Below are positions 40,757 to 43,722 of a stretch of DNA of 64,000 nucleotides, in pieces. The stretch comes from Octopus sinensis (taxonomy: Eukaryota), in assembly GCF_006345805.1 (NCBI RefSeq), contig NC_042999.1:19530001-19594000 (forward strand), in the 5' to 3' direction. The translations under genes and the position numbers were made by a program. Every line of letters begins with the position of its first letter. Position 1 is the stretch's first letter. The notes below the pieces were generated by a model. It had not been told where the DNA came from and did no database searches. It saw only the letters and a list, made by a program, of their open reading frames with translations.

Positions 40757-41013
40757 TACGGAGATGTACTCGCATAGCAAGTGATTTGATCTGAGATCAT
40801 GTGCTGGAACGAAAACAATTGCAGTGTGGAAGGTGTTTGTAAGCCATTTAAGAAACACACAAAAGCCGTTCGATTCATGGATTTTTGTCAGTGAACAGGT
40901 TGTGGATTTTAGCGAGGAAAATATTTTGACAAATTAAACTTAAATGTTGAAGTGAATCGAACGGCTTTTGTGTGTTTCTTAAATGGCTTACAAACACCTT
41001 CCACACTGCAATT
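40757..41013. mobile_element. MITE/foldback with 61-bp perfect inverted repeats in (TA)n
   Basis: 40817-40877 is the reverse complement of 40953-41013. Confidence 0.75.
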
Positions 41014-41049
41014 ATATATATATATATATTATATATATATATATATATA

Positions 41050-41529
41050 CGGTTAAGTAATTGAGATTCTAGTGAATTCTAAAGAATTCACATGAATATG
41101 GTCCTTAACTAGGATGCACCGGATATCTATATGGTGTTAGCCATATGACAAGTGGGGTGACTTTCCTCTACATGATGTGGCAGTCACTTTGCCTCTTACT
41201 CAGATTTTCAGAAATTTTGCATGTCTGTATCCGAAAATTTCTTCATACAACTTGATCAAATATCCAATATGAGCTATATGTAGACATGCATAAATTCTAT
41301 AGGTTTAAAACCTTTCATCAGATCTCCATGAATCGAACTTGCTTCAATGCAGTTAATCCTACAACCTCTTTTATATCTACCCCTTTTGATGTTTGGGAAT
41401 TCTCTGATATTTTTTCGGCTGACGAGTACGAGCCATCTGTATTCACTGCATTTTTTGTAGCTTATTAAAGATGTCCTCGTACGAAACGATCGTACCGAGA
41501 TTTTAATCCATTCTTGTTGCTTTTTTCCT
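41050..41529 (+). mobile_element. Penelope-like element 3' end (pLTR)
   Basis: Contains an intact HHR; upstream frames give ASYSDFQKFC..ENFFI and CRH..KF, loosely resembling PLE C-termini; flanked by (TA)n. Confidence 0.5.
41413..41500 (+). ncRNA. Type I hammerhead ribozyme, fully intact
   Basis: tttcgg-CTGACGA-gtacgag...ctcgtac-GAAA-cgatcg-TA-ccgaga; 6-bp helix I, 7+5-bp helix II with G10.1-C11.1, palindromic helix III, GUA triplet. Confidence 0.88.
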
Positions 41530-41705
41530 ATATATATATATATATATAAGGGTCTTTCCTTAATATTTTGTTGAATATATTATATAGTCTGTGACTATTT
41601 CTATTTTCTCACTTGACCGCTGGTTGCAGAAAATTTTTCTTGAAATTTTTTCTTGAATTTTTTTGCTACCCTATATTGATAAATATATATATATATATAC
41701 ATATA

Positions 41706-42228: not shown

Positions 42229-43722
42229 GTGTGGAAACAAGGATTAGAATCGAAGGGCCTCAGAGTCAATCTAGCTAAAACCAAAGTCGTAATCAGTAGG
42301 AAGGTAGACAAATCACAAACACCTTCAGGTGGATGGCCCTGCTCGATCTGTAGAAAAGGTGTAGGTAGAAACTCTATAAGATGCACCAAGTGTAAGCTAT
42401 GGACACATAGAGATGCAGCAATGTCAAAGGAAGGCTAACTAGGAAGATGGTTTTTGTATGTGGCAGATGCTCAGGAACAATAAACACTGAAAATGCTCTG
42501 AGACCAACTTCCGTCACTTTCCAGGGAGAAAAAAAGAAATAGTTGATAGTTTCCGTTACCTAGGTGACCAGTCAGCAGCGGGGGTGGGTGTGCTGAAAGT
42601 GTAACTGCTAGAGTAAGAATAGCTTGGCAAAGTTCAGAGAGCTCTTACCTCTGCTGGTGACAAAAGCCTCTCGCACAGAGTGAAAGGCAGACTGTATGAT
42701 GCGTGTGTACGAACAGCCATGCTACATGGCAGTGAAACATGGGCCGTGACTGCTGAGGATATGCGTACGTCGCTAGAAATGAAGCCAGTATGCTCCGATG
42801 GATGTGTAATGCCGGTACTCACACTCGGCAGAGTGTAAGTACCTTGAGAGAAAAGCTGGACCTAAGAAGCATCAGTTGTGTGTGCAAGAGAGACGTTTGC
42901 GCTGGTATGGTCATGTGGCGAGAATGGATGAAGATAGTTGTGTGAAAAAGTGCCACACCTAGCGGTTGAGGGAACCTGTGGAAGAGGCAGACCCAGGAAA
43001 ACCTGGGACGAGGTGGTGAAGCACGACCTTCGAACTTTAGGTCTCACTGAGGAAATGACTAGAGACCGAGACCTCTGGAAGTGTGTTGTGCGCGAGAGAC
43101 CCGCAGGACAATGAGTCCACAACCCGTGGCCTTCTACATGGGATGGAGCCAGCCTACGTATGCATACCTTCCCTCTTGGGACACAAAACTCTACTTGTGA
43201 AGACGTGTTGAGGCAAGTGAGGATCAGAATCGAAATCGATCAATGGAAATTGCGGATGTGCTACCAGTGCCGGGGCATGTCGAAACTCTGCTTGTGAAGA
43301 CCCATTGAGGCAAGTGAGGATCAGAATCGAAATCGATCAATGGAAATCGATCAATGGAAATTGCAGATGTGTTACCAGTGCCGGTGGCATGTAAGAGAAC
43401 TTTCCGTTTCGCGACCGTTGCCAGCACCGCCCCGTTTCGTGTCCGTTGCCAGCCTCGCCTGGCCTCGTGCCGGTGGCACATAAAAAGCACCATCCGTTCG
43501 TGGCCGTTTGCCAGCTCTGTCTGGCACCAGTGCGGTGGCACAAAAGCACCCACTACACTCACAGAGTGGTTGGCGTTAGGAAGGGCATCCAGCCGTAGAA
43601 ACACTGCCAGATTTGACTGGGCCTGATGAAGCCTTCTGGCTTCACAGACCCCAGTAGAACCGTCCAACCCATGCTAGCATGGAAAACGGACGCTAAATGA
43701 TGATGATGATGATGATGATGAC
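42226..43722 (+). mobile_element. 5'-truncated RTE LINE with frameshifts (same family as 8091-10622)
   Basis: [35 protein letters not shown]..; MLHGSETW; 3' UTR units; (GAT)n tail. Confidence 0.92.

Follow-up and report, generated by a model that had tools for sequence, protein, structure and literature searches.

The closest described relatives of the element studied here are the Hydra-clade Penelope-like elements (PLEs), which include the octopus family Hydra-1_Obim (Craig et al. 2021, PMC8557442). Elements of this clade encode a reverse transcriptase (RT) followed by a GIY-YIG nuclease, carry RWK, DKT, CxCX5C, CxxC and CxH motifs, and insert into (TA)n with an inverted 5′-truncated arm and a tail. 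In addition, they have a canonical hammerhead ribozyme with a near-palindromic helix III near the 3′ end. Minimal, palindromic type I hammerheads were described in metazoan PLEs (Cervera and de la Pena 2014, PMC4209133), where the palindromic helix III implies cleavage as a dimer, and where solo truncated copies and close opposite-strand pairs are abundant. Two further systems are more distant. Animal non-LTR retrozymes (PMC7229834; Li, Clavereau and Pollet 2026) share the type I hammerhead and a PLE connection, and the discontinuous hammerhead in the 3′ UTR of Clec2 genes (PMC6765202, PMC6155905) cuts at a position where it disturbs polyadenylation.

The Octopus sinensis element has all of the Hydra-clade features listed above, but it differs from the published clade in several respects. 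Its unit is 4.2–4.8 kb long, whereas published units are generally shorter than 3 kb, a figure that is descriptive and not strict; it has two Asn-rich insertions and a 3′ UTR of about 1.35 kb, and its tail is about 118 nt against 30–40 nt. Furthermore, the helix II domain spans 57–60 nt in this clade of copies, whereas loop 2 has 3–10 nt in the Hydra rows of File S2 (PMC8557442). By eye, the element is a family separate from Hydra-1_Obim, with a different hammerhead. Compared with the hammerheads of PMC4209133, the topology, the 7-bp basal helix II, the palindromic helix III, the many solo truncated copies and the opposite-strand pairs are the same, but here helix II has a further 43-nt domain, in which an apical hairpin and a poly(A)-type hexamer lie, helix I has 6 bp, and A9 is not followed by a bulged base. 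The retrozymes are short non-coding tandem units, unlike the protein-coding 4.8-kb element. Meanwhile, the Clec2 hammerhead is a type III ribozyme of a host gene with its signal downstream of the cut, whereas here the hexamer lies inside the ribozyme of a mobile element, and interference with polyadenylation is predicted. Thus, the motif is a structural variant, with a long helix II, of the known hammerhead of PLE terminal repeats.

The motif lies in a window of 64,000 nt, by which we mean the whole stretch of DNA that was analysed. We are fairly confident that this hammerhead lies in the terminal repeat at the 3′ end of a Hydra-clade PLE that is young and protein-coding, that the insertion is two-armed, 5′-truncated and placed in (TA)n, that cutting is predicted for the dimer only, and that a likely poly(A) signal is enclosed in the loop of helix II. 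The features, in window coordinates, are as follows.

41013–41049, no strand: (TA)n microsatellite, left of the insertion
41050–41160, minus strand: inverted tail arm, heavily truncated, from the 5′ UTR of the following unit (element +44 to +154, counted from the cut); 95–97% identical to L060 2290–2400, L057 and L056
41159–41412, plus strand: non-coding 3′ UTR / pseudo-LTR; 96% identical to L057 from 6635 on
41413–41500, plus strand: type I hammerhead ribozyme motif with a 57-nt helix II domain; 88 nt, 186 exact copies
41413–41418 with 41495–41500, plus strand: helix I, with one G-U pair
41419–41425, plus strand: core C3–A9 (CUGACGA); apart from N7, unchanged in all 19 aligned sequences
41426–41482, plus strand: helix II domain, with a 7-bp basal stem, a partly conserved 5-bp extension, an internal loop and an apical hairpin
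41426–41432 with 41476–41482, plus strand: basal helix II, closing pair G10.1-C11.1
41434–41438 with 41469–41473, plus strand: helix II extension CAUCU/AGAUG
41439–41468, plus strand: helix II loop, 30 nt
41446–41450 with 41456–41460, plus strand: apical hairpin within the loop (41446–41460), pair probabilities 0.96–1.0
41464–41469, plus strand: likely poly(A) signal, the hexamer ATTAAA, which sits in the internal loop and 31 nt upstream of the cut
41483–41486, plus strand: GAAA core
41487–41492, plus strand: CGAUCG of helix III
41486–41493, plus strand: palindromic helix III ACGAUCGU, 8 bp in the dimer
41493–41494, plus strand: UA core
41494/41495, plus strand: predicted self-cleavage site after A41494 (GUA triplet), from core numbering on the sequence
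41501–41528, plus strand: U/GU-rich end of the element, its first 3′ end, at +34 from the cut; candidate poly(A) downstream element
41529–41548, no strand: (TA)n microsatellite, right of the insertion

The original prediction had described an intact type I hammerhead, and we found each listed pairing and core letter at its position. The proposed cut after A41494 agrees with the core numbering and the GUA triplet, and the self-complementary CGAUCG is present in helix III, which has 2 bp in the monomer, forms the 8-bp palindrome in the dimer MFE structure and is 100% paired in 19 sequences. The CAUCU/AGAUG extension exists in the window copy, but two of its five pairs are broken in 11 of 19 and 8 of 19 relatives; the loop length of 30 nt was correct, but the apical hairpin and the ATTAAA had been overlooked. 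The fold of the hammerhead region had a z-score of −3.34, and none of 200 shuffles was as good. Furthermore, the exact 88-nt motif occurred 186 times in the 2.72-Gb genome and its reversed-pattern control 0 times, so the motif is not due to chance. Rfam gave no match in the window at the gathering threshold, and no hammerhead family was among the 37 matches with E up to 10; this miss reflects the long helix II and not the absence of the motif. The Rfam miRNA matches in the window were microsatellites and an unrelated inverted repeat. It is doubtful whether the long helix II domain permits the usual loop I–loop II geometry. Two other hammerhead-like motifs are present on the minus strand of the window. 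One (core start 56588) is minimal, with a 5-bp helix I and CG instead of helix III, and probably belongs to another PLE family; in the other (core start 21444), helix III is the palindrome CAGCTG and helix II spans 29 nt.

To identify the family, a genome search was run with positions 41060–41530 as the query; 40 of its 1,455 first-look candidates were scored, and the top matches among these covered 41159–41530 at 97–100% identity. Truncated copies start at scattered points and run unbroken, at 95–98% identity, into a frame encoding RT and nuclease, and in long copies both domains lie in a single frame with the nuclease C-terminal. In each of the six copies examined (L056, L057, L060, L079, L081 and L082), a hammerhead is present in each direct terminal repeat, and the start codon lies 209–211 nt past the first cut; full-length copies measure 4,199–4,815 nt from cut to cut. 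The open frame is intact with 947 aa in L080, which belongs to a sister subfamily. In the subfamily of the window, none of the 14 long copies had a fully intact gene: L060 keeps a 1,105-aa open frame but has YRHD in the catalytic motif and a shifted end. The sister subfamily (L080–L083, L105, L108 and L109) has 83% RT identity and is very young, with identical copies.

The protein carries the motifs by which the Hydra clade is defined (RW[K/R], DKT, CxCX5C, CxxC and CxH; PMC8557442), namely RIRWK in L080 and RIRWR in L060, DKT at 124, the CxCX5C linker, and CxxC and CxH around a conserved E and N. No CCHH was seen by eye on the alignment, and the published Hydra RTs were likewise compared with the element by eye. 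Both nuclease pieces (2 of 2) matched PF01541 (GIY-YIG) with E of about 1e-4, and a Pfam search with the RT piece of the element gave no match. The C-terminal position of the nuclease ruled out a Naiad or Chlamys identity. The two long Asn-rich insertions, which contain internal repeats, stand after the RT thumb and before the cysteine linker (L060 2455–5769, L080 1498–4338), and they were absent in 20 of 20 aligned relatives (20 of 32 protein matches were aligned). A piece of the host gene model P0013, by name an ankyrin repeat protein, is 68% identical to the RT region of the element; the model is probably a chimeric prediction. Thus, the Penelope-like origin that had been proposed is borne out by copies with RT, GIY-YIG and Hydra-clade motifs linked to the same 3′ end, but the family is a protein-coding, autonomous-type PLE, with copies continuous with the RT–nuclease frame, and not the non-autonomous PLE or retrozyme that had been supposed.

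The window locus itself is an ordinary 5′-truncated transposon copy. Its forward arm (41159–41528) comprises the terminal 370 nt of the 3′ UTR and ends at +34 after the cut. The two arms share a 2-nt GA overlap at 41159–41160, and the sequence of the tail arm stands downstream of the hammerhead in other copies. The sequence upstream of the hammerhead had been read as a badly decayed PLE-like frame; this is not the case, since the 254 nt in question are non-coding 3′ UTR at 96–98% identity to full-length copies, and tblastn with the element proteins had no match anywhere in the window. In full copies, this stretch of 3′ UTR lies about 1 kb past the stop codon of the nuclease. With one hammerhead and no gene, the window copy is most likely an inert passenger. 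Just upstream of the hammerhead, the 3′ UTR also contains a direct repeat that is degenerate and about 250 nt long (69–74% identity; L057 6397–6816, window 41165–41340). Next to the insertion lies an unrelated element, whose terminal inverted arms are long (about 40760–41010), and 40758–40954 draws an Rfam MIR8007 match. Farther downstream, 42250–43000 is by eye a broken RTE/LINE-like reverse-transcriptase sequence, 84–90% identical to stretches of L003 and L022.

The ends of insertions fall into two classes. Among 105 contexts, the 3′ end of the element lay at +28 to +51 in 57 and at +148 to +165 in 38, with none between; these 95 contexts reach (TA)4 at one of the two fixed distances, and the other 10 had no (TA)4 in range. 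Inverted pairs had one short and one long arm in 20 of 20 cases with both ends found (22 pairs were listed). Two internal reverse-transcription starts with two-strand extension were reported in vitro for an anole element (PMC11167929), and the two arm classes fit these two start sites by analogy. Since every insertion ends past the cut site, the template is not a linear RNA ending at the cut. We therefore infer that it is a circle or an uncut tandem RNA, as was proposed in PMC4209133. A circularised unit RNA, or an uncut tandem RNA, would be copied from two internal starts, which lie some 36 and 154 nt past the cut. With one start per DNA strand, the insertion would receive one short arm and one tailed arm.

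Recent activity, which had been anticipated, is confirmed by the 186 exact copies and by a mean divergence of 1.5% among the 30 best copies, which include the window copy and were chosen by similarity to it. The motif does retain its CpGs (8 of them), but this needs no special cause: among the 30 best copies, differing letters were as rare at CpG sites (7 of 660) as at other sites (90 of 10,424), so the intact CpGs reflect youth. Differences were rarer in the hammerhead (7 of 2,639) than upstream (88 of 7,607; Fisher p = 8e-6, with sites that are not independent).

Older subfamilies extend this comparison, with RT dN/dS of 0.08–0.10 and dS up to 1.36. The hammerhead bin was 72–97% identical in 12 of 12 older copies, and the UTR more than 120 nt upstream was about as identical as a shuffled control in the distant ones. 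In addition, the catalytic core was invariant across subfamilies with dS up to about 1.4. In an alignment of 19 of the 40 distinct motifs, picked to span the subfamilies, 90.8% of 513 cells were paired, with 17 double changes, against 30–50% in slid controls. Helix I was 93.9% paired with double changes at 2 pairs, and the 7 basal pairs of helix II were retained in 18–19 of the 19 sequences; covariation scores based on numbers of pairs or of types were no better than those of shuffles (233 and 405 of 500). An RT tree built from 18 copies shows two switches of the palindrome in helix III between AATT and GATC, by double substitution, and one lineage has a G-U-compatible intermediate (the label of L078 was disregarded, since its motif belonged to a neighbouring family). 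CpG decay was rejected as the cause of the GATC/AATT change, since at least one change was toward CpG in the lineage of the window, the tree being unrooted in substance. These patterns of substitution demonstrate selection on the hammerhead fold among source elements. The invariant core and the double substitutions of the palindrome support cleavage as a dimer.

Folding predictions point in the same direction. As a monomer, the best structure (−26.4 kcal/mol, against −22.0 for the hammerhead fold) hides the core by pairing it with its own 3′ half. The dimer MFE structure is a double hammerhead of −58.8 kcal/mol against 2 × −26.4; the gain of −6.0 kcal/mol was matched by 162 of 200 shuffles, so within these models only the identity of the dimer fold is informative, not the size of the energy gain. 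Dependence on the dimer is known behaviour of this class of hammerhead (PMC4209133; PMC6765202). In a transcript spanning both terminal repeats, two hammerheads 4.2–4.8 kb apart would join through the helix III palindrome, and the double hammerhead would release a unit-length RNA. A full element would thus supply two hammerheads per RNA, and the window copy, having one, would need a partner in trans.

Three other explanations of the hammerhead should be weighed against this reading. The most substantial of them, though improbable, is that conservation concerns the structure of the motif, which might, for instance, serve as a handle for protein binding, without meaningful cleavage any longer, the long helix II replacing or blocking the contact of loop I with loop II. 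PLE hammerheads cut poorly in vitro, even as dimers (PMC4209133), catalytic mutants left insertion in vitro unaffected (PMC11167929), and the monomer fold is predicted to be inactive, all of which suit this explanation; against it, all catalytic positions are invariant over dS of about 1.4, and the palindrome was restored by double changes. A hammerhead of a non-autonomous element or non-LTR retrozyme is highly improbable. Although the window copy is non-coding and short truncated copies predominate among the matches, the truncation points are scattered at the 5′ side and the copies continue into the RT–nuclease frame at 95–98% identity; in addition, we did not find a short head-to-tail unit like those described for retrozymes (PMC7229834). 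Least credible of all is that host selection keeps the window copy as a regulatory ribozyme. The perfect motif with its retained CpGs could be taken in its favour, and the original prediction had allowed for it, but the motif is identical to 185 other copies and the 370-nt arm departs from the commonest letters at 3 places. Youth is sufficient to explain the intact copy, and selection is seen among the source elements.

The long helix II is not confined to this family. Outside the clade of the window, the helix II span was 10–25 nt in 48 of 48 distinct hammerheads, which came from 51 of 77 metagenome Hydra-like loci. Within the genome, a search for the core letters only, with helices unchecked, gave 40,216 matches with a span of 40–70 nt (control 1,712) and 20,274 with a span of 10–39 nt (control 1,477). 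These core matches come from many families, and nearly all of those listed are palindromic in helix III. At least one other long-helix family (L126) sits downstream of a Hydra-type nuclease. The loop hexamer is present in only 12,319 of the roughly 40,216 long cores (control 40), counted with slightly different span limits, so long helix II as such is not accounted for by the hexamer. No PLE hammerhead with a long helix II turned up in the searched literature, and work of 2017 on PLE hammerhead variants may include forms with a long stem II. Both the long helix II and the loop hexamer go beyond the searched literature, and the novelty of the long arm could be lower given the work of 2017.

In the clade of the window, the loop hexamer was found in 89 of 93 distinct contexts, as ATTAAA in 60 and AATAAA in 29, with one switch on the tree. 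These are the two commonest poly(A) hexamers. Among families without a loop hexamer, three with a long helix and one with a short helix carry it past the cut, at +3, +6, +20 or +22; the three long-helix families with the hexamer 3′ of the cut also led us to reject the hexamer as the reason for the long helix II. Two tandem, retrozyme-like hammerhead families have no poly(A)-type hexamer: one (L140–L147 and L168–L169; C1:257506–258667 and others) consists of head-to-tail units of about 558 bp, and the other (L149; C1:4297863–4299124) of units of about 400–440 bp. The place of the hexamer relative to the cut ranges from −31 to +22, and it correlates with the place of the first 3′ end (r = 0.91), the distance between them being 50–73 nt in 8 families of this genome; these families are related, four of them were found via the hexamer, and the L130 family was left out for unclear ends. 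Among the metagenome families, 18 of 29 have a hexamer within −55 to +25 of the cut, 14 of them at −1 to +9, and 11 of 29 have none in that range. Shuffled flanks gave a mean of 2.9 and a maximum of 8 in 1,000 trials, the reverse complement gave 4 of 29, A-rich control words gave 8 and 9 of 29 with overlap of the hexamer sites, and TATAAA/TTTAAA gave 3 of 29.

In the element, A(A/U)UAAA is followed by a U/GU-rich tract, so both features of a poly(A) signal are present. Poly(A) is usually added 10–30 nt after the hexamer. On these sequence features, and less firmly than for the template, polyadenylation in the family of the window would fall at 41479–41499, on the ribozyme cut, and either event would then disable the other. 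The hexamer and the U/GU tract would direct polyadenylation within a few bases of the cut, giving two possible fates of the transcript: a polyadenylated mRNA in which the ribozyme is destroyed, or a ribozyme-cut template from which the downstream element is removed. Assembled contigs from four presumed-RNA runs cover both the repeat and the tail and run across the cut site, and no loose poly(A) end was present among the 19 listed of 22, a result that weighs neither for nor against expression. The searched literature made no link between polyadenylation and the PLE hammerhead, and polyadenylation is not treated in PMC2377424.

The main rival to the poly(A) reading is a role in protein positioning. 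A(A/T)TAAA could be a site at which the element protein binds and sets the first RT start 50–73 nt downstream, or else a tertiary-contact or TATA-like promoter motif; taken together, we regard these as a possible but rather less probable explanation. The near-constant distance to the first 3′ end would suit a protein ruler equally well, the sequence around the hexamer is rich in A, and in some families the hexamer forms part of helix I. However, the hexamer switches between ATTAAA and AATAAA, precisely the pair most common among poly(A) signals, both in the clade and in outside families; TATAAA/TTTAAA occurs in 3 of 29 families. Moreover, its location varies: it can precede helix I on the 5′ side, sit within loop II or follow the cut, and a fixed tertiary contact would not permit such freedom. 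The U/GU tract also stands downstream of it.

We put at about an even chance the broader proposal, under which Hydra-clade PLEs couple the hammerhead to a poly(A) signal, with cleavage and polyadenylation exclusive and yielding template and mRNA, respectively. Under this proposal, the long-helix-II forms are a radiation of about 40,000 cores, twice the number of short ones and invisible to Rfam, including a clade of about 12,000 in which the signal has shifted into the ribozyme. As the long helix II form shows, ribozyme counts in such genomes overlook tens of thousands of motifs. In addition, assays could draw on this young family, in which identical copies and compensatory variants occur naturally. 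The role of the hammerhead in nuclease-bearing PLEs was stated as unclear (PMC8557442). If the proposal is true, a hexamer travelling with the ribozyme would give it a concrete role, as a switch between mRNA and transposition template.
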